The translations under genes were made by a program, and so were the position numbers. Positions 4,522-34,436 of a DNA stretch of 64,000 bases are shown here, piece by piece. Every line of letters starts with the position of its first letter. Position 1 is the stretch's first letter. The DNA is taken from positions 64,001 to 128,000 of the IMG/VR virus record IMGVR_UViG_3300029908_000007; one strand, written 5' to 3'. The notes beneath the pieces were generated by a model, which was given only the letters and a program-made list of their open reading frames with translations, had not been told where the DNA came from and did no database searches. The stretch is from a virus.

Positions 4522-6693
4522 ATGCTAAAACTCAAAAAACTTACATTTTCTAATATAGGCCGTTTCACAGACGAGCAAAACGTTGACTTCACTAAACTCG
4601 GCTCCCTCGTGCAAGTAGACGCACAAAACAATAATACCGGTGGCAGCTCAGGTTCTGGGAAAAGTACCATTTTTAATGGGCTAGATTGGCTTCTCGGTCT
4701 ATCCGACATCAGCACTTCTACTTTACAATCTCGTCTAACCAAAAGTCATATCTCGGTTTCCGGTGAGTTCGATTGGGATGGGAAATCCGTTACAATAACT
4801 AGAAATCGAAAACTATCTATCGTCATAGATGGCAACGAAACGACAGGCTCTAGTAAGATCAGCGAAGAGAAGCTCGATGAGATCCTGGGAATGCCCAGGA
4901 ACCTATTCCGGCCTCTCCTTCATAAGCGCCAGGGAGAAACTGGCTTCTTTTTGGGCCTAACCCCGGCTAAGATGAATGATTTCCTAGTTGATACCTTAGG
5001 TCTGTCCCAAATCCGCTCTAAAGTCGACGTAATCGACGGCAAGACCAAAGAATTGGGTCTGGCAAAGATAGGTGCGCAAACCGGCCTTGCAGTCGCCCAG
5101 GCCAGTCTAGAGGCTAATAAACGGGCCTTAGAGGCAGTAGGAGACGAACCCGTGACTAGCGTACACCAGGACCTCGTAGAAGGCTGGAAGCTGCGCTGTG
5201 TAGCCGCTAATACCGACCTAATGACCGCCAAAGACCGGCAGGCCATTGAGAAGTCTCAATTGGAAACCAAAAAGCCAAAACTAGTCATTAATCCTTTTTC
5301 AGCAGCGGCTTTAGAAGCAAACCAAATGCGAGAAAAAGAACTCAACAGATTGATTAACGAATCTCTCTATCAGGAAAGAGATCGTCAGACTCTTGTAAAT
5401 AAGGAGATCTCCAAGCTAAAACTGGACCTATCTACCCAGGTCGCGACCATCAATGCCAGGACTAGTAAAGAAGTCGCCATTCTTAACGCTAAACTGTCGG
5501 AGACCGCTATGGCCATCCGTCTTGGAGCGATGTCTAAAGAGGAGGCCATTAAAATTGCCTCTAAAATTAAGACCGTAAGAGCTGGAACCTGCTATACCTG
5601 TAATCAAGTATGGGTTTCTGCTTCAGAAGAAGAGAGGTTATTGGCTAGTCTCGGCGAGCACAAGGCTAAGATAATCTCCGCAAAAGATGCGGAGAATAAT
5701 GCTATTGAACTCCGCACCGCAATTGCCTATATCCAGGATAGTTCCAGTAAAGATATCGAAGGCCTTAATAAGGATTATTCACTTAATATTCAGGGATTGA
5801 CGGAACAAGCCAAACCACGAATTCCTGCCGAGATCCCCGGTCTAAGAGCTGATTTGGCCAACATCATTGATTTGATCCAGAAAGAAAAAGTCAAGGAAGC
5901 CGCTCATAACGAAGAACAGAACAAGACCAACAATCAGACCATGTCTGCTTTCTTCGCCGACCAAAAAGTTTTGGCCGCTAGACATCAAGAAGAACTCCAA
6001 GTTGTTAATAAAGAACTTGAAGAAGCTCGAAGTCAGTGTGAACGGCTTAGCTCCGAACTCAGGAATCACGAAACCAATCTGGCCAAACATAAACAGGTTC
6101 TGAAGAGTCTGACGGATGCCCAAAACGAACAGACCTCAAAAGTAGAACAAATGACCCTAAAAGTAGGTCAAGTCGAAGAGAAGCTAGTCATGGCCGAGGA
6201 AGTCAAGCGCTGTCTTAAATCCTATCTGAGTTGCAGTTTTGATGATGCCTTGGATAGTATCAGCGATTCCGCGACGGCCATCCTACGGGCGGTTCCAACT
6301 ATGGCAAACGCAACTATCCGTTTGGAAGGAACAAAGGAAACCGGCGCAGGAGCCATCAAAGATCAAATCAATGCCTGTATTGATAACGATGGAGAAATTG
6401 GAATTCCTATCAAAAGTCTTTCCGGTGGCGAGCGCTCAGCCGTAGATCTGGCCATCGATCTCGCTGTAGGCAATTTGATTCAAGAAAAAGCCAATAAAGG
6501 AATCGATGTCATGATCCTAGATGAGCCCTTTAATGGATTTGACAGCATTGGTATCGAGCATTCCCTTGAAATGATTAGGACTTTTGCCGTCGACAAGAAG
6601 ATCTTGATCGTCGAACACGATGGCGTCGCAAAAGAGTTTATTCAGGACCGCATTACCGTAGTCCGCGACGGAGAAATTAGTAGTGTAAAATAG
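4522..6693 (+). CDS. SbcC/Rad50-like (T4 gp46-like) ATPase
   Basis: Walker A GSSGSGKST, coiled coils, Zn hook CYTC, signature LSGGE, Walker B ILDEP, H-loop VEHD. Confidence 0.93.
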   Translation: MLKLKKLTFSNIGRFTDEQNVDFTKLGSLVQVDAQNNNTGGSSGSGKSTIFNGLDWLLGLSDISTSTLQSRLTKSHISVSGEFDWDGKSVTITRNRKLSIVIDGNETTGSSKISEEKLDEILGMPRNLFRPLLHKRQGETGFFLGLTPAKMNDFLVDTLGLSQIRSKVDVIDGKTKELGLAKIGAQTGLAVAQASLEANKRALEAVGDEPVTSVHQDLVEGWKLRCVAANTDLMTAKDRQAIEKSQLETKKPKLVINPFSAAALEANQMREKELNRLINESLYQERDRQTLVNKEISKLKLDLSTQVATINARTSKEVAILNAKLSETAMAIRLGAMSKEEAIKIASKIKTVRAGTCYTCNQVWVSASEEERLLASLGEHKAKIISAKDAENNAIELRTAIAYIQDSSSKDIEGLNKDYSLNIQGLTEQAKPRIPAEIPGLRADLANIIDLIQKEKVKEAAHNEEQNKTNNQTMSAFFADQKVLAARHQEELQVVNKELEEARSQCERLSSELRNHETNLAKHKQVLKSLTDAQNEQTSKVEQMTLKVGQVEEKLVMAEEVKRCLKSYLSCSFDDALDSISDSATAILRAVPTMANATIRLEGTKETGAGAIKDQINACIDNDGEIGIPIKSLSGGERSAVDLAIDLAVGNLIQEKANKGIDVMILDEPFNGFDSIGIEHSLEMIRTFAVDKKILIVEHDGVAKEFIQDRITVVRDGEISSVK

Positions 6694-6696
6694 TTC

Positions 6697-6725
6697 TTGA
6701 CTTTAGGGAGGGCTTGTTGTAGATT
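6697..6725 (+). promoter_or_regulatory. Promoter TTGACT-17-TAGATT
   Basis: Intergenic; precedes AGGAG RBS and a small-gene cluster. Confidence 0.65.
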
Positions 6726-6742
6726 AGCTGGCAGGAGACGAT

Positions 6743-6949
6743 ATGGAACGACAATGTCAATGCTCATGCAATTGTAGTGTTTGGACGACAAATAGCAACA
6801 GTATTTGTGGTTATTGCGATGATTGTTATAAGAAAAACTCTCGAACTTTCTCAGAGCAAATGAAAGAAGCATCGCTGACAATGGAAGCCAGAATTGAAGG
6901 TCTAGAAGCCGCCGTAAAACGTCTTAACCGAGAACTGGGGCTAAAATGA
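6743..6949 (+). CDS. Cys-rich plus coiled-coil hypothetical protein
   Basis: RBS AGGAG; CxCxCxC...CxxCxxC. Confidence 0.65.
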   Translation: MERQCQCSCNCSVWTTNSNSICGYCDDCYKKNSRTFSEQMKEASLTMEARIEGLEAAVKRLNRELGLK

Positions 6950-7353
6950 TTCTACTTGAACTTACAACTAAAGAAGCCGAATTCATTAGGGAAGTCATTG
7001 CTTTGGAGAAAAACTCTGTGACTAATTCCAAATTGGAATGGGCAGAAAAGGAAAGAAAAACAGGTATTTGTAATTCTTTTTTAGCTAAAGTAGATCACGC
7101 TTCGGAGCCACAAAAAGATGTTATGATTACCGCCAACGATCTCTTTCTCCTGATCTCCCAGGCCAAACGGGAATATCTGAGTTTAAATAGCGGATTGCAT
7201 ATTTCCGGCATAGAGGTTGACAAAAAAGACCTCCCACATATTAGTGTGACCAACGCCTTATTGTTGTTTTTGAATGGGGAAAACTTACTGAAAAAAATGG
7301 TAAGATTTGATATAACCGACCAAAGCGGTCAATACGAGGAGCTAGAAGAATAA
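6946..7353 (+). CDS. Hypothetical protein
   Basis: ATGA-coupled ORF. Confidence 0.7.
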   Translation: MILLELTTKEAEFIREVIALEKNSVTNSKLEWAEKERKTGICNSFLAKVDHASEPQKDVMITANDLFLLISQAKREYLSLNSGLHISGIEVDKKDLPHISVTNALLLFLNGENLLKKMVRFDITDQSGQYEELEE

Positions 7354-7354
7354 T

Positions 7355-7567
7355 ATGTTTGATACACATAAACTGAATGAAGCCGGATTTGCAGCGGTCA
7401 AAACGCTAAAAACGAATATGGCCGCAGCTGTCCAAGAAGCACTTTCCCTTATGCCAGAAGGTCGAGAAAGGTCTATTTTTGTAACCAAGATCGAAGAAGC
7501 AATGTTTTTTGGAACCAAAGCCGTTGCTTCCGATCGCAACTTTCACACAGAAGTAGTTAAATATTAA
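7355..7567 (+). CDS. Acb2/Tad1-like helical-hairpin protein (candidate immune-signal sponge)
   Basis: 'F.tH.L....V..lK......PEGRERSIFVTKIEEAMFFGTKAVA' resembles the R-E-x3-TK(L/I)EEA hairpin of Tad1/Acb2-related proteins. Confidence 0.55.
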   Translation: MFDTHKLNEAGFAAVKTLKTNMAAAVQEALSLMPEGRERSIFVTKIEEAMFFGTKAVASDRNFHTEVVKY

Positions 7568-7577
7568 GGAGAATAAT

Positions 7578-7778
7578 ATGGAAAGACAGAAAGAATTATT
7601 TTTAGTTTGGCAAGGTGGAGCAGACGAACAGTTTTATAATCAATACGAGTCATTGGTAGATGCTGTTAGCTCAGAAGAAGAAGGTACTGAAATTTTTGAA
7701 GCAAAACTCACTTCTCTTGGTAGTTATAGGCTAGTGACTAAGATGATAAAAGAAAAGAAATCAAAGAAGGCAGAATAA
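7578..7778 (+). CDS. Hypothetical protein
   Basis: AAGGAG RBS. Confidence 0.7.
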   Translation: MERQKELFLVWQGGADEQFYNQYESLVDAVSSEEEGTEIFEAKLTSLGSYRLVTKMIKEKKSKKAE

Positions 7779-7779
7779 C

Positions 7780-8082
7780 ATGGCAAAATTCAAAAAAGAA
7801 CCCCTCACAGAACTACAGAAAATTGCAAAGAAAATCGGACCCGATGCCGAAGACGTTCTAGCCGAACTCGAAGCCATGGATGTGCCCGGTCTTAACAAAC
7901 GCATTGCTCAGGCAAACCAGGCAATATCTGATACAAAGGAAGAACTGGATAACAATCCCGCCTATCAGCAAGTTCTGGCCGATAAGAAACTGCTCGGCAG
8001 CGGTTTCAAAGAAGTGAAAGCGCGGCAGAACGCGATTATTGCTATCTCGGTTCAACTCAGGAAGGACAAGGGAGAAGCATGA
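7780..8082 (+). CDS. Coiled-coil hypothetical protein
   Basis: Operon packing; heptad pattern. Confidence 0.7.
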   Translation: MAKFKKEPLTELQKIAKKIGPDAEDVLAELEAMDVPGLNKRIAQANQAISDTKEELDNNPAYQQVLADKKLLGSGFKEVKARQNAIIAISVQLRKDKGEA

Positions 8083-8408
8083 AAACCGCAGTCGAATCTA
8101 ATGCAGAGACATTGGTGAGTAGAGGAGAGCGATTTAGTCTAGAAACCCTTATGTCTATTATAGAAGATAGTGTATGTAGATCTGTAGACGATGGCGAATT
8201 TGAAACTACTGTTGGTACATATAATTTTATCGCTTCTGATGTAGCTCTGGCTCAAAAAATACTAAAGAATTTGGGATACGATGTTGGAGATGGTGGTGAT
8301 TATCTAAGAATAAACTGGTCGAGCCGCACAGTTCCGAAATCCCAATCCTGTGGACCCAGCTTCTGTGAAGACTGTAATTGTGGTAAGAAAGAGCAAGTTG
8401 AATGCTGA
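8079..8408 (+). CDS. Hypothetical protein
   Basis: GGAG RBS; ATGA overlap. Confidence 0.65.
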   Translation: MKTAVESNAETLVSRGERFSLETLMSIIEDSVCRSVDDGEFETTVGTYNFIASDVALAQKILKNLGYDVGDGGDYLRINWSSRTVPKSQSCGPSFCEDCNCGKKEQVEC

Positions 8409-29323: not shown

Positions 29324-29969
29324 AGAAAAGACTGACAGTATGGTAGTCGAAGAGAAAGCGGTGGCTGAAGAGCCTAAGATCGCTCGATTTACCGAGTTCG
29401 AAACTAAATATAGTTCGGACATCGCCATGCTATCTGCTTTTAAGGCCATCGTGGAAGTTCTGCCTGGTCTATTAGAATTCACTTATGCTGAAGGTCCGGA
29501 TACTTATTTGACAAAACCAGACGGATCTTTTGGCCGGTATCGGGCTGCCAAATATCCCCACGGAACCCAATATGCGCAGTGGACGCTAAAATTCAAACCA
29601 GTGGGAGCCAAAAACAACATCTCTAGATTAGAATACAACTGGCGTGTGGATGGAACTCCGGCCCAGGAGATCCTAGATGGCGCGGAGGCTATGGGGTTTT
29701 CGTTCAATTTTAAAATAAATAAGGGGTGCCACATCTACCGATTCCCAGAATGTACACTCGTTTTTTATTCTGTAAAAGAAGAAGGTAAGACCGAAGAAGA
29801 CTATTTCATAGAGATCGAAATAACAGAACAGACTGTCCATGAGCTTACCGAAGAACAAGCCTGGGAAATCATTAGAAAATATGAGAAGATCTTAGAACCA
29901 GTTGGGGTTAATGCGCAGAAGCGAATGCGTAGAAGTCTGTTCGAGATGTATAGGAAAGATCTCAAATGA
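29313..29969 (+). CDS. CYTH-domain (triphosphate tunnel) enzyme
   Basis: EFETKY (ExExK), DTY, RYR, TLK, RLE, FIEIE. Confidence 0.8.
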   Translation: MAGEEKTDSMVVEEKAVAEEPKIARFTEFETKYSSDIAMLSAFKAIVEVLPGLLEFTYAEGPDTYLTKPDGSFGRYRAAKYPHGTQYAQWTLKFKPVGAKNNISRLEYNWRVDGTPAQEILDGAEAMGFSFNFKINKGCHIYRFPECTLVFYSVKEEGKTEEDYFIEIEITEQTVHELTEEQAWEIIRKYEKILEPVGVNAQKRMRRSLFEMYRKDLK

Positions 29970-30505
29970 AAGAGATTCAACTAACACAGGGAAAAGTAGC
30001 GCTAGTAGACGATGAGGATTATGAAGAACTCTCCAAGATGAGTTGGCATGCTTGGTATAATAAAAATAATAATAGTTTTTACACTCATCATTCTGTCTAC
30101 AACGGTAGCGGCAAAAATCCAAGTGTAATCAGAATGCATCGTCACATTTTAGGAATAAAAGATAATAAAGTACACGTAGACCACATAAATGGAAATACTT
30201 TAGACAATAGAAGATGCAATCTAAGGCCGGTAAATAGATCCCAAAATACTACAAATGCAACTAAAGTCAGAAGAGACAATAAATCTGGGTTTAGAGGTGT
30301 GGGGGAATATTTTTACACTGGTGTCAAAAAATGGACAGCTAAGTTAAAAAAAGATGGGAAGGTTATTAGATTGGGATACTTCGACTCCCCAGAAGAAGCT
30401 GCACGCGCTTTCGACAAAGCAGCAAAAGAGCTATATGGAGAATATTGCGGCAAACTTAATTTTGAAGAGGTTCATAAAAACTTGGAACATAAAAAGGAGA
30501 CCTAA
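29966..30505 (+). CDS. HNH-AP2 homing endonuclease
   Basis: MHR, VDHINGNTLDNRRCNLR, SGFRGV, LGYF.SPEEAARAFD. Confidence 0.92.
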   Translation: MKEIQLTQGKVALVDDEDYEELSKMSWHAWYNKNNNSFYTHHSVYNGSGKNPSVIRMHRHILGIKDNKVHVDHINGNTLDNRRCNLRPVNRSQNTTNATKVRRDNKSGFRGVGEYFYTGVKKWTAKLKKDGKVIRLGYFDSPEEAARAFDKAAKELYGEYCGKLNFEEVHKNLEHKKET

Positions 30506-30506
30506 T

Positions 30507-30773
30507 ACGCCATACATCAAAACCGAAGAAAGAAACAAGTGGAAAAATGGAATCGCAGAACTGGTAATGGCTATGCATGATCACGGAATCACGCCAGGCG
30601 ACCTTAATTATATTTACACCAAACTTGCCCATCATTACATTCAGCGTAAGGGACTTAATTATACCCATTTGAACGACATCGTAGGTGTTTTTGAATCAGC
30701 GAAGGCTGAATTCCAACGACGTGTCGTGAATCCCTACGAAATTTCGAAGATTGAAGAAAATGGTGATTTGTGA
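30507..30773 (+). CDS. Conserved phage protein (PYIK...GDLNY...EFxRR...PYE type), apparent ACG start
   Basis: AAGGAG + 7 nt + ACG CCA TAC ATC AAA; helical protein ending KIEENGDL. Confidence 0.65.
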   Translation, partial: TPYIKTEERNKWKNGIAELVMAMHDHGITPGDLNYIYTKLAHHYIQRKGLNYTHLNDIVGVFESAKAEFQRRVVNPYEISKIEENGDL

Positions 30774-31048
30774 CCGATTCCCCAACCGATATCTATGCTA
30801 TTAGTGCTAGAGTTATGAATGCCGCTAGGATGGCCGTTGGAGCCAACCTAACGCCTGCTGGGACAATGGTTTGCAACACTTTTTCTACAACGCTCAAAGA
30901 GTTTTATGATTTCGCCGAGAACCTAGAAGATGCTATGATTAGGAAGGATCTAAAAAATCTAATCAAAGCCCAAGAAGAAGCGCCAGCCAGACCTATAGTA
31001 GCTTTATGCGCTGGTATGAAAAAGAAATCTAGTGAAGATTCCCAATAG
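30770..31048 (+). CDS. Hypothetical protein
   Basis: GTGA overlap; last gene of the + arm. Confidence 0.6.
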   Translation: MTDSPTDIYAISARVMNAARMAVGANLTPAGTMVCNTFSTTLKEFYDFAENLEDAMIRKDLKNLIKAQEEAPARPIVALCAGMKKKSSEDSQ

Positions 31049-31139
31049 CCCTGGCTATGTCTAAGATTCCGATGCCTACGACATACATAACAAAAAGAAG
31101 CATCCCCACTAAAATAGCAGCGGTAAGGCTATTTTTCAT
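31029..31139 (-). CDS. 36-aa single-TM protein (not in ORF track)
   Basis: MKNSLTAAILVGMLLFVMYVVGIGILDIARAIGNLH*; TAATG-coupled to the C1q fragment. Confidence 0.55.
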   Translation of the reverse strand: MKNSLTAAILVGMLLFVMYVVGIGILDIARAIGNLH

Positions 31140-31549
31140 TAATTTCCAATTCTTTCGAAACTCATGTAATTGTCAGAAGTAGAAGCTCCAGTAGTTTGCC
31201 CTACACCACTTATACTAAATGCCCCGACGAAGTTCAAAGTATCCCCAGCATTACATTGGATGATTATAGATCCTCCCAATCGTACAGATACAGAGGAGCT
31301 GGAAACTCCTACATGAGTATCCAATTCAGTATCTACTCCTCCATTGCGGTACACAGAGAGGGTTGATTGAGAACCAGGTATATCTGTTACGTTGAATATG
31401 AAGTTAGCCGTTGCCCTATATTTACCGCTCACTGGAACAGTGTATAATCCCGTTGAAGTATTATATGCGTTGTGGGTATCAAACACTTTCGTAGGCAAAA
31501 TAACTGTTGATCCAGCTGGTGGAAAAGTTACTCCAGAAGCACTGGTAGA
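31139..31549 (-). pseudogene. Start-less orphan C1q-like tail-fibre tip module (136 codons)
   Basis: Open frame STSASGVTFPPAGSTVILPTKVFDTHNAYNTSTGLYTVPVSGKY...ERIGN*; paralogous to the C-terminus of 31986-34436; bounded upstream by TGA; no ATG near the start and no clear RBS. Confidence 0.65.
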
Positions 31550-31776
31550 TCAGGCATTCCTGGAGCCATAAGAGGGGCAGCTTCAGGATTTGGTGAGTTG
31601 GGCATTGCTACATTTGCGTTGTGGATTTTTGGCATTGCAATTTTTGGCGCCCCGCCTGCTAAATTGTGGGGTACACTACCGGCAAGTTTCGGCGCAGTTA
31701 CGTTAGAATCAAGGGTACGCGTAGCCATTCGGCTTTTTAGGGCATTTAGGATATTGCCAAATTGATTATTTGCCAT
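31528..31776 (-). CDS. Small Pro/Ala-rich hypothetical protein
   Basis: Starts 1 nt after the upstream stop; 3' end overlaps the orphan C1q frame. Confidence 0.6.
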   Translation of the reverse strand: MANNQFGNILNALKSRMATRTLDSNVTAPKLAGSVPHNLAGGAPKIAMPKIHNANVAMPNSPNPEAAPLMAPGMPDLPVLLE

Positions 31777-31777
31777 A

Positions 31778-31954
31778 TTATTTTTTCTTTTCCTTCAACC
31801 ACTCTTTAACAGAAATCTTCTTTTTGGCTGCGCCCTGCATTGCTCGCTCTCCAAATTTATGACGACCTATGGCAGCCGCCGCAGCATTGGCCCCTTCTTT
31901 GCTATACCCACTCTTTTTTCTAATCGCTGCTGCTAATTTCTTAAATGCACTCAT
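31778..31954 (-). CDS. Small, very basic protein (58 aa)
   Basis: GGAG RBS; MSAFKKLAAAIRKKSGYSKEGANAAAAAIGRHKFG... Confidence 0.7.
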   Translation of the reverse strand: MSAFKKLAAAIRKKSGYSKEGANAAAAAIGRHKFGERAMQGAAKKKISVKEWLKEKKK

Positions 31955-31985
31955 TAAATCTCCATTTTCTGTGGCGTAACGCCGC

Positions 31986-34436
31986 TTAATTTCCCACTCT
32001 GACAATACCGAAATATGTCGCACTTTGTCCGCCAGTGATGGAATGTCCTGTAGCCGTATTCAAATTAAGCCCAAAGGTAACGCTATCTCCAGCGTTTAAG
32101 GCTAAGAGACAATCAACCTGTCCAGACACATTAGCCGTTCCAGCAGCAATTGTCCCGTCAGCATCCGAGGATTTTATAGGAGTGCCGTTTACGCGTACTT
32201 GTGTTTGAACGTCATAGGCGTTAGAAGCGCCGATAGAATAAGAAACACAGACGCTAACCGAGTATTTACCGCTTACGGGAGCAACATAGGCATTAGAGGC
32301 AAATGCGTTGTGGCTGTCAAACTCCTTTGTATCGAAACAAGTGATTTGCTGTGCTCCAGTTGAAATGCTTTGCCCAGCACTTGAGTAATAGGCAGCATTC
32401 ACGCTTTCCGTTGCCGTAACAACAGCGGGACCGGAGAGACGCTCAATAATGAGCGTGCAAGTGCTCGAATTCGTGATAACGCCGCCGCCATATGTTTGGG
32501 CATTGTCGGTATAAAGTCCCAAAGTATCTCCGGCAGAACACAATAGCGTGGTGGAACCAGAAGTCCCTATAGAAGTCCCAGGGAGTGCAGTTAGCGCTTT
32601 AAAGTTGGAACCGTTTTTGTAAATATGAAGACTCGCTGTTCCGGTACTTGAAAATGAAATACCAGAAATACGGTAATATCCGCTTACAGGAACAGTGTAT
32701 AAATTGGTGGATGTAGAAAAACCAGCATGGGTATCATAATCCACAGTGTTGTATGGAATTACGCTGTTTGTTCCAACAGCAGTATTTGTTGATAAATGAG
32801 TACCCATGGCAACAACCCTAGTATCGGTGTCCGCACTAGCCGAGGTATTCGAAGACCAGCCGTTAATGGGAACACAATAGGTAAGGCTTACAAAAACGTT
32901 ATTGAGGAGTGTTGCTCCGGTAGCGGAATTTAGGCCGCCAGAACCTGAAGCCTGAACGCCGATATCTAGGATTGTGGGGTTCGAAGTAGCATTGGGCGTA
33001 ATTACATAGAAAGACGCCGCAGTACTTCCGCTCTGCGCCATAGTACCAACAATACTAGAAGCTGACGGAAACAATGAAGAATTTATTGAGACGTTTTGAT
33101 TACCGCCGTTATACCCAATACTGACAGAAAGCGCTGAGGCTGTAGTAGTTCCTGCCTGAAAACTAACTTCTCCTAAAAGATAGGCCCCCTGTCTAGAAGA
33201 GGTTGCAACAAGATTGGATACCGTACCAAAACCTGTAACAGTTGGGGTATACGCAACGGGGTCACTCATCGCAGGGGCCATGGGCGCGATTTGGGGACCT
33301 ACGCTGAAGTCGTCCATATACAAACTGTAACCAGCGGTAGCGCTATTAAGGGTGACGATGGCCAACTGATATTGAGTGCTATTGCTTGTGGTTTGGAATG
33401 TTGCGGTTGATTTACCCACACCGCTGCTTTGATTGATGTTAAAAACACCAGCGGGTTGAATCCAAGCGGCATTAGTTACGTCGTAGACGTAAATAGCAAA
33501 AGTATTAGAACTGTTACCAGGAATAATTGCAGGAGAACCTGTAACCAATTTATAATCAAAACTAATTTGCATTACTTTAGCTTGATCTGAGCTATCAATG
33601 TTAAAAACACTGCTAATTAACGTGTCCCCCTGAGATGCGGGTCCTGTAGAACTAAAATCAACAGAATAGTTTCCTGAGAGAGTCCCAGAAGACTCTAGGA
33701 AAATCTGAGCCAAAAATGGGGCTGTGCTTTTAGAAGATGTGAAAGCAATAGTGCTGCTCCCACTTCCAGTTGATTTGGTAAGAGTTCCGGAAGATGCTGG
33801 AGCCCCCGTACCAGTGGCTACCGCTAAAGTTGCGGTTGAGTTGCCCAGAAATGTGAAGGTGTGTCCATTATTGGTGTAAGTATCACCAGTTACTGCATTT
33901 CCACTTGTAATTACAAAGACGTATTCTACATTGGTAAAACCAACTCCGGGCGTCGTTACAGTTACGGGAATAGTTCCAGAAGTGGTGAGATTGATTGTTT
34001 CCCAGCCTGTAAGGGAACCCAATTCAAAGTTGCCGTTGCCGTTATTGGTACCATTTGAAGTGGTTATGGCAGAAAGATAATTTTTAGAACCCCCACCGCC
34101 AACTCCAGAACTACCTGCTTGAACCGCCCATGTGCCTGCGGACGTACCGTTTGCGACTAGCTTAATCGTTAAAGATCCGCCTGGGGAAACCGTGGGGTTT
34201 GGAAGGAAGGAAGCACCACCGTTGTATTCAATCGTAAGAGCGCCGGTAGATCCGTTATAAATTTCAAACCACTGACCGTCTACCATCGTGGTTGCATCGG
34301 GAAGAACGATGGTTTGACCGGAGGAACCCGTAAAGTATTGAATTTGTTTACTAGTATTGACAAGGGTTGTGGTGCCGCCCGCTGTGGCAGTACTAGCTTC
34401 TTGCATTACAACTTGGCCGAATTGAAACAGTCCCAT
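31986..34436 (-). CDS. Tail fibre / receptor-binding protein with two tandem C-terminal C1q-like domains
   Basis: Ser/Thr/Gly-rich; two 'DTH/DSH...Y(T/V)xPVSGxY...NG...AGD' units. Confidence 0.8.
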   Translation of the reverse strand: MGLFQFGQVVMQEASTATAGGTTTLVNTSKQIQYFTGSSGQTIVLPDATTMVDGQWFEIYNGSTGALTIEYNGGASFLPNPTVSPGGSLTIKLVANGTSAGTWAVQAGSSGVGGGGSKNYLSAITTSNGTNNGNGNFELGSLTGWETINLTTSGTIPVTVTTPGVGFTNVEYVFVITSGNAVTGDTYTNNGHTFTFLGNSTATLAVATGTGAPASSGTLTKSTGSGSSTIAFTSSKSTAPFLAQIFLESSGTLSGNYSVDFSSTGPASQGDTLISSVFNIDSSDQAKVMQISFDYKLVTGSPAIIPGNSSNTFAIYVYDVTNAAWIQPAGVFNINQSSGVGKSTATFQTTSNSTQYQLAIVTLNSATAGYSLYMDDFSVGPQIAPMAPAMSDPVAYTPTVTGFGTVSNLVATSSRQGAYLLGEVSFQAGTTTASALSVSIGYNGGNQNVSINSSLFPSASSIVGTMAQSGSTAASFYVITPNATSNPTILDIGVQASGSGGLNSATGATLLNNVFVSLTYCVPINGWSSNTSASADTDTRVVAMGTHLSTNTAVGTNSVIPYNTVDYDTHAGFSTSTNLYTVPVSGYYRISGISFSSTGTASLHIYKNGSNFKALTALPGTSIGTSGSTTLLCSAGDTLGLYTDNAQTYGGGVITNSSTCTLIIERLSGPAVVTATESVNAAYYSSAGQSISTGAQQITCFDTKEFDSHNAFASNAYVAPVSGKYSVSVCVSYSIGASNAYDVQTQVRVNGTPIKSSDADGTIAAGTANVSGQVDCLLALNAGDSVTFGLNLNTATGHSITGGQSATYFGIVRVGN

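Follow-up and report, generated by a model that had tools for sequence, protein, structure and literature searches.

In P2, P1, Mu, lambdoid and T-even phages, horizontal exchange affects the distal parts of tail fibre genes and takes accessory genes lying downstream along with them, and mosaic tail fibre genes with distal exchange were reportedly described in 1992. The invertible tail fibre segments Mu G, P1 C and p15B Min place alternative C-termini beside the fibre gene, and silent-cassette gene conversion operates at pilE/pilS of Neisseria and vlsE of Borrelia. C1q-like putative receptor-binding modules, which form the hypervariable, often replaced portion of phage genomes that are conserved elsewhere, lie at or beside fibres in marine metaviromic islands (PMC3909814) and cryoconite phage pan-genomes (PMC7468147). 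Here we analyse a C1q-like domain that lacks a start codon and lies downstream of a tandem-C1q tail fibre gene in an uncultured bog phage of ~162 kb. The window, the whole 64,000-nucleotide stretch that was analysed, corresponds to bases 64001-128000 of IMGVR_UViG_3300029908_000007, a 162,308-bp phage record that is 98% complete. We refer to the start-less domain as the orphan and to the two C1q-like domains of the fibre as D1 and, at its C-terminus, D2.

We consider it likely that this fibre originally had the orphan as its last C1q knob, which was cut off by a foreign block that recombined into the gene. The locus would then resemble the mosaic fibres of P2, P1, Mu, lambdoid and T-even phages, in that a distal receptor-binding module was swapped between unrelated backbones, small downstream genes travelled with it, the breakpoint fell at a conserved linker and leftover fragments mark the event. 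It differs from them in that the unit is a single C1q-type knob of a tandem-C1q fibre in an uncultured 162-kb phage, no chaperone family is known for the passenger genes, and the replaced tip is complete rather than a fragment, with the junction placed to a few bases. The marine and cryoconite phages carry allelic variants of expressed genes, whereas here the replaced variant is retained downstream without a start.

Results

Comparison with a phage of another backbone revealed the homology of the DNA between the fibre and the orphan. At the locus L038, whose backbone differs structurally from that of the window phage and includes an SU10-type adaptor, the fibre gene is followed directly by a gene of 56 amino acids (aa) and then by a 109-aa gene, homologues of the two small genes found in the window. 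The 56-aa gene is 68% identical to the 58-aa gene of the window. Residues 3-76 of the second small gene, an 82-aa open reading frame (ORF), are 58% identical to the 109-aa protein, and its first 75 residues are 72-73% identical to P0136, a 108-aa protein of L069 and L070. The full-length 108/109-aa proteins extend ~30 residues beyond APGMP, where the window copy adds seven unrelated residues (DLPVLLE) and stops. Because the 109/108-aa gene stands in conserved synteny with the genes downstream of it at L038 and L069 (95/106 aa and 453/511 aa), we assign it to that backbone and take the window copy to be its truncated, derived form. The GC content and codon usage of the block were indistinguishable from those of the resident DNA.

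The right-hand end of this homology can be placed precisely. A blastn alignment of the window with L069 (77% over 146 nt) breaks off exactly at 31552, a base that is the T of the TGA preceding the orphan frame, and DLPVLLE would be old fibre sequence read out of frame. This end point disfavours a second reading, in which DLPVLLE corresponds to PNLQALL of the 108/109-aa proteins and an internal deletion occurred between APGM repeats. The residues S-R-N-A, read upstream of the TGA in the orphan frame, were also considered as a remnant of the fibre linker ESVNA, which we rejected as the main reading because synonymous-only differences from the L038/L069 passenger gene (APGMP) explain the bases and the homology continues to 31552. 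A GAATGC microhomology is the sole remaining possible link between these bases and the fibre linker.

The two C1q domains of the fibre have different affinities. The best homologue of the whole fibre, P0016 at L038, is 45% identical over residues 103-816, and no fibre above 45% identity was found elsewhere in the fibre-family search. D2 has its best relative in the terminal domain of the L038 fibre (50% identity, 130 bits; the next of 223 matches scored 64 bits), whereas the nearest relatives of D1 are proteins other than the L038 fibre. An identity profile further showed that the N-terminal ~120 aa of the fibre are like those of the syntenic relatives, not L038. Since D1 and D2 differ in their nearest relatives and the N-terminus follows the syntenic phages, the left breakpoint is most simply, and probably, the D1-D2 linker, which is almost identical in the window and L038 (SGPAV[VI]TATESVNAAYY).

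Synteny also bears on the origin of the orphan. The minus-strand late arm of fibre genes in the window ends at ~31139, and the facing plus-strand replication arm ends at 31048. The fibre gene closes its arm in the 63-kb contig L039 and in L042/L041, which measure 150.8 kb and derive from the same bog samples. A distance of 94-117 nt separates its R[IV]GN* stop from the convergent genes, the first of which in L042 (84 aa) is the homologue of the window gene that lies 90 nt from the orphan stop. Because the terminal C1q domain of these relatives adjoins the same convergent arm, the orphan appears to occupy the ancestral position of the fibre end. In a third relative, L040 (168.8 kb), an unrelated 280-aa gene lies between the fibre and the convergent arm. 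The L038 block, the truncation of the 82-aa ORF and synteny thus support one of the three options put forward in the preliminary description, namely that the tip was replaced, with the import of two small genes, and that a scar remained.

We propose that the donor was a phage with another backbone, of the L038/L069 type, and that the imported DNA comprised the linker, a different terminal C1q domain that is now D2, the stop codon of this domain, the 58-aa gene and ~75 codons from the 5' end of the 108/109-aa gene. The left crossover would have been homologous, within the conserved D1-D2 linker (SGPAVVTATESVNA). The right crossover would have been illegitimate, probably via GAATGC(C), which is read as GGA ATG CCT in the passenger gene and as xxG AAT GCx in the linker of the resident fibre, and would have removed the last ~30 codons of the passenger gene. 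A donor T joined to a resident GA would have formed the TGA in the frame of the old domain, and the next 21 resident bases, read in the passenger frame, would have supplied DLPVLLE and the stop. The sharing of GAATGC by the fibre linker and the orphan boundary, pointed out in the preliminary description, was confirmed: the two copies (32400-32395 and 31559-31554) are separated by 841 nt, and AAT GCx falls in codon phase in each of the two C1q frames. Left without a start or ribosome-binding site, the old domain would most likely be untranslated 3' sequence of the late fibre operon. The features of the locus are listed in Table 1.

Table 1. Features of the fibre-to-orphan locus, in window coordinates.
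Feature	Position	Strand	Remarks
Tail fibre, 816 aa	31986..34436	-	ORF; family of 444+ fibres
Fibre D1, residues ~540-680	32819-32397	-	C1q-like; hidden Markov model (HMM) domain 554-674 of stop-to-stop frame
Fibre D2, residues 681-816	32396-31989	-	C1q-like; HMM domain 690-823 of stop-to-stop frame
Putative imported block	31552..32400	-	Linker from GAATGC, D2 with its own stop, 58-aa gene, 5' three-quarters of 108/109-aa gene
58-aa gene, function unassigned	31778..31954	-	Start ATG 31954, GGAG Shine-Dalgarno motif; L038 homologue starts at same residues
82-aa ORF	31528..31776	-	3'-truncated copy of 108/109-aa gene; residues 1-75 homologous
Candidate right-hand recombination junction	31550..31559	-	GAATGCCT (passenger gene), then GA; TGA forms across junction
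Orphan, predicted terminal-type C1q/TNF jelly-roll domain	31139..31549	-	136 sense codons and TAA; no start before codon 18; without Shine-Dalgarno motif
Convergent 92-aa gene, marks fibre-arm end	30770..31048	+	Homologue 94 nt past fibre stop in L042

The orphan is predicted to retain a complete fold. An AlphaFold2 model built on a 39-sequence alignment (pLDDT 87.4, pTM 0.82) gave a complete jelly-roll, and Foldseek comparison with the PDB matched it to C1QL1, the C1q head, collagen X/VIII NC1 and EDA/TNF (probability 1.00), with superpositions at TM 0.63-0.74 over 126-139 columns; the modelled domain is a compact ten-strand jelly-roll that can be superposed on gC1q. The Pfam model PF00386 (C1q) matched the orphan at 20.5 bits (E 6e-4), under its gathering cut-off of 23.7, which many full-length relatives pass, and the orphan matched PHROG 15750 at 5.6e-11 and PHROG 746 (minor tail) at 3.8e-9. 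Compared with its own fibre it is 37% identical to D1 (E 2e-11) and 26% to D2, and in the rest of the phage genome it is matched only by these two domains (25-41% protein identity). The nearest relative, P0137 (52% identity, E 1e-30), is the terminal domain of a 791-aa fibre on a siphovirus-like contig. Because most of the top matches are the final domains of long fibres, with the ending R[IV]GN*, while internal C1q domains run on with RLSGP and a linker, the orphan appears to be a terminal-type knob with its natural stop.

An exhaustive HMMER search (E <= 1e-3) placed 2,580 proteins in the tandem-C1q fibre family, nearly all of them 600-2,000 aa long with at least two C1q stretches. By similarity and invariant residues the orphan belongs to this family; it lacks the start codon and the N-terminal shaft or anchor of a member. 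The fetched loci hold ~40 C1q domains, of which the orphan alone has a start-less frame that begins at the domain boundary in an otherwise unbroken contig: all other profiled C1q domains belong to ORFs that start well upstream, with the sole exception of the frameshift-broken contig L021. P0006 and P0004 were considered as stand-alone or start-less copies and rejected, being C-terminal domains of longer fibres: the open frame of L023 reaches the end of its contig, and L021 is the contig broken by frameshifts. Stand-alone C1q proteins do exist in other phages (L008-L017, L022, L066), where they are 155-197 aa long and carry an N-terminal part of 23-70 residues. L009 and L010 each hold two adjacent stand-alone C1q genes of ~160-190 aa, and in a 110-kb IMG/VR phage contig (L006:2848-9486) nine C1q-like domains stand in tandem within an open frame of 2,213 codons.

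The frame of the orphan agrees with what the preliminary description had read from the sequence: 136 uninterrupted codons that open without a start at the domain boundary, overlap the 82-aa ORF in the -1 frame and end like the fibre. The frame is closed upstream by a TGA (31552-31550) and downstream by TAA, it opens at position 2 of the C1q profile in the scan of fetched loci, and its earliest ATG, GTG or TTG is the TTG of codon 18 (31498), followed by a GTG at 31486. The overlap with the 82-aa ORF (31776-31528) amounts to 22 nt. The anchors FDTHNA (FDxHNA in the family), PVSGKY, NG and NAGD and the terminus ERIGN* (VRVGN* in the fibre) are all present, and in the 39-sequence family alignment the orphan retains 7/7 invariant and 8/8 near-invariant columns. 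Its coding-frame score of 0.34 is close to the genome mean of 0.31 (sd 0.13), the other two frames being strongly negative.

Such an intact frame, with all conserved residues and a normal coding signature, could indicate a working gene with its start at TTG 31498 or GTG 31486, where ribosomes might re-initiate after the 82-aa stop 30 nt upstream of the TTG. Its product would be a C1q-like protein of 115-119 aa with a virion or accessory role. The gene calls of several databases do annotate the orphan from these starts, and the small stand-alone C1q proteins described above offer a precedent. However, either start would drop the first 17-21 residues, including predicted strands at 8-9 and 14-15, and every stand-alone homologue has its 23-70-residue extension before the domain. 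In addition, Shine-Dalgarno-like motifs, present for the fibre, 58-aa and 82-aa genes, are absent before both the TTG and the GTG, and a frame that opens at profile position 2 fits a severed domain. We therefore regard a working gene as unlikely, and the database calls of 115-119 aa are probably not real proteins.

No convincing terminator was found between the 82-aa ORF and the orphan, and for this reason the orphan is probably transcribed as a 3' trailer. A weak hairpin with a U-tract lies 3' of the orphan, and scans for consensus promoters and terminators gave no excess over shuffled expectation. Two other ways of accounting for the start-less frame were rejected: stop-codon recoding, since several more stops lie upstream of the TGA in the orphan frame, and an intron or structured RNA, since there was no Rfam match and the fold of the 3' flank was not significant (z = -0.3).

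The preliminary description also raised a frameshift fusion of the 82-aa ORF to the orphan. The 22-nt overlap would let a -1 ribosomal frameshift, or slippage during transcription, join the end of this ORF to the C1q domain in a short fibre of ~211 aa, and a product of this size would resemble the small stand-alone C1q proteins of other phages. The overlap (GATCTACCAGTGCTTCTGGAGTAA) nevertheless contains neither an X XXY YYZ heptamer nor a homopolymer run, and neither an Rfam element nor significant structure was found nearby. Moreover, the homologues of the 82-aa protein are stand-alone proteins of 108/109 aa, never with a C1q domain, and the overlap arose by truncation. These observations make a fusion very improbable.

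The locus is spanned by 14 independently assembled metagenome contigs, which come from bog samples of JGI and from MEGAHIT assemblies in ENA, with 99.8-100% identity and zero gaps. Bog metagenomes in which this phage occurs include JGI samples 3300029922, 3300030044, 3300030508 and 3300030049 and those of ENA assemblies ERZ27248809 to ERZ27250120. Because all carry the identical gap-free locus, the frame offset of the orphan is real and not an assembly artefact, an error that the preliminary description had named as a potential refutation; none of the 14 has the indels at 31528-31552 that it suggested looking for. Across the fibre-to-orphan stretch there are three single-nucleotide polymorphisms (SNPs) in total, all in one contig and all inside the orphan. 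This contig, L024, differs from the window over 1,395 nt only by these SNPs, which fall within 16 nt (31264-31279) and change L to V, nothing (synonymous) and I to L, both nonsynonymous changes being conservative. The alleles match neither D1 nor D2, and the cluster may have arisen through one multi-nucleotide event or mark a small patch of recombination.

A further alternative treats the orphan as a standby tip. Recombination between the AGTGCT copies at 32381-32376 and 31543-31538 would delete 838 nt and, as AGTGCT is in codon phase in both frames, would fuse D1 to the orphan in frame, amounting to an enzyme-free receptor switch. In favour of this reading, the orphan is intact and oriented like the fibre, and polymorphism at the locus in the 14 contigs is confined to the three clustered SNPs inside it. 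In its location near an expressed gene in the same orientation, as a promoter-less and start-less copy of a variable surface domain, the orphan is like the silent copies of pilS and vlsE. It differs from them in being a single cassette with flanking repeats of at most 11 nt exact, for which neither recombinants nor machinery were found. The longest exact match between orphan and fibre, 11 nt, falls at conserved motifs, protein identity is 26-37%, the best extended repeat is just 57 nt at 70%, and a deletion at the GAATGC repeat would read into the TGA. Neither long shared identity nor chimeric variants were found among the 14 contigs and in database searches: all 14 contigs have the same arrangement, and no recombinant fibre, nor any second copy above 52% identity, appeared among 1.84 billion representatives or in the fibre-family search.

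The preliminary description had envisaged such switching with no invertase or reverse transcriptase (RT), and by Pfam the 98%-complete genome encodes no resolvase/invertase (PF00239), no RT (PF00078) and no RecA-family protein. The silent donor for RecA-mediated tip switching that it had put forward consequently received no positive support, and a single insertion fully accounts for the anatomy of the junction. We judge a standby tip to be quite improbable. If it were nevertheless true, the lack of decay of the orphan and the confinement of SNPs to it would, in this improbable case, reflect selection rather than youth, and the phage population could fall back on its previous host receptor without an invertase, a retroelement or long homology.

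The absence of PF00239 and the direct rather than inverted orientation of the copy likewise distinguish the locus from Mu G, P1 C and Min, and no significant inverted repeats were found at the fibre-orphan locus. A diversity-generating retroelement, which combines an RT with a template repeat, finds no counterpart either, as PF00078 is absent and the orphan is not repeated anywhere else in the genome. In the frameshift-riddled L021 (a 2.7-kb JGI contig), a homologous distal part of a fibre lies between 38-nt perfect inverted repeats (7-44 and 2676-2713), each encoding AKVNPFPPIDET in a fibre-like frame; this contig has the look either of a fibre segment that can invert, as in Mu G / P1 C, or of an artefact that arose in assembly at such a repeat.

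Several observations concern the neighbouring genes. No Pfam family matches the 58-aa protein, whose C-terminal motif KKK[MI]SVK[ED]WL (KKKxSVKEWL) is common to proteins at L038 (4714-4884) and L069 (3-449). The carrier at L069 is a much longer Gly/Ser-rich protein in the same gene position, and the pattern points to a small docking motif carried by proteins that are unrelated in other respects. On the other side of the orphan, an HNH/AP2-type homing-endonuclease gene (29966-30505) lies ~0.6 kb from the fibre-arm end, and a 139-aa ORF called downstream of it (30354-30773) overlaps it by 150 nt; for this ORF a shorter start is likelier, because other gene callers give a 68-aa DUF6899 protein. 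In the syntenic relative L039, a replicative AAA/DnaB-like gene (6128-8209) has Hint and LAGLIDADG matches indicative of an intein, which is not obvious in the window's copy of the replication arm.

Discussion

The evidence leads us to favour severance of the old tip by a recombined block, although several observations weigh against it. The orphan is undecayed, with its 136 open codons, 15/15 conserved positions, normal coding score and confident full-domain fold. Because it shows no decay, either the swap was recent or the orphan keeps some use; if the swap was old, the intact domain would argue for selection. Protein identity between the block and its sampled relatives is no more than 45-73%, so that the actual donor lies outside the sample. 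No relative with an uninterrupted D1-orphan fibre emerged from the fibre-family and exhaustive HMMER searches, and the orphan is 33-39% identical to the terminal domains of the syntenic relatives, not clearly closer than to other family members. Close relatives were also absent from a megablast search against cultured phages and from pattern scans of viral contigs with the 82-aa ORF and with the neighbouring helicase, and a scan of metagenome contigs with the 82-aa family alignment gave no matches.

On present evidence, the locus is a case of ordinary tail fibre mosaicism, unusually legible, and involves no new mechanism. Reuse of the orphan would provide an enzyme-free route to host-range switching, for which we found no support. 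For annotation, the 82-aa ORF is best described as a truncated passenger. The locus offers a near base-resolved record of a change of receptor-binding tip in a phage, in which the unit of exchange would be a single C1q domain together with its downstream genes, bounded by a conserved linker on one side and a 6-7-nt microhomology on the other. Fossils of this kind reveal the unit of exchange and the type of junction in an environmental fibre family that is very large, 2,580 of its members being detectable.

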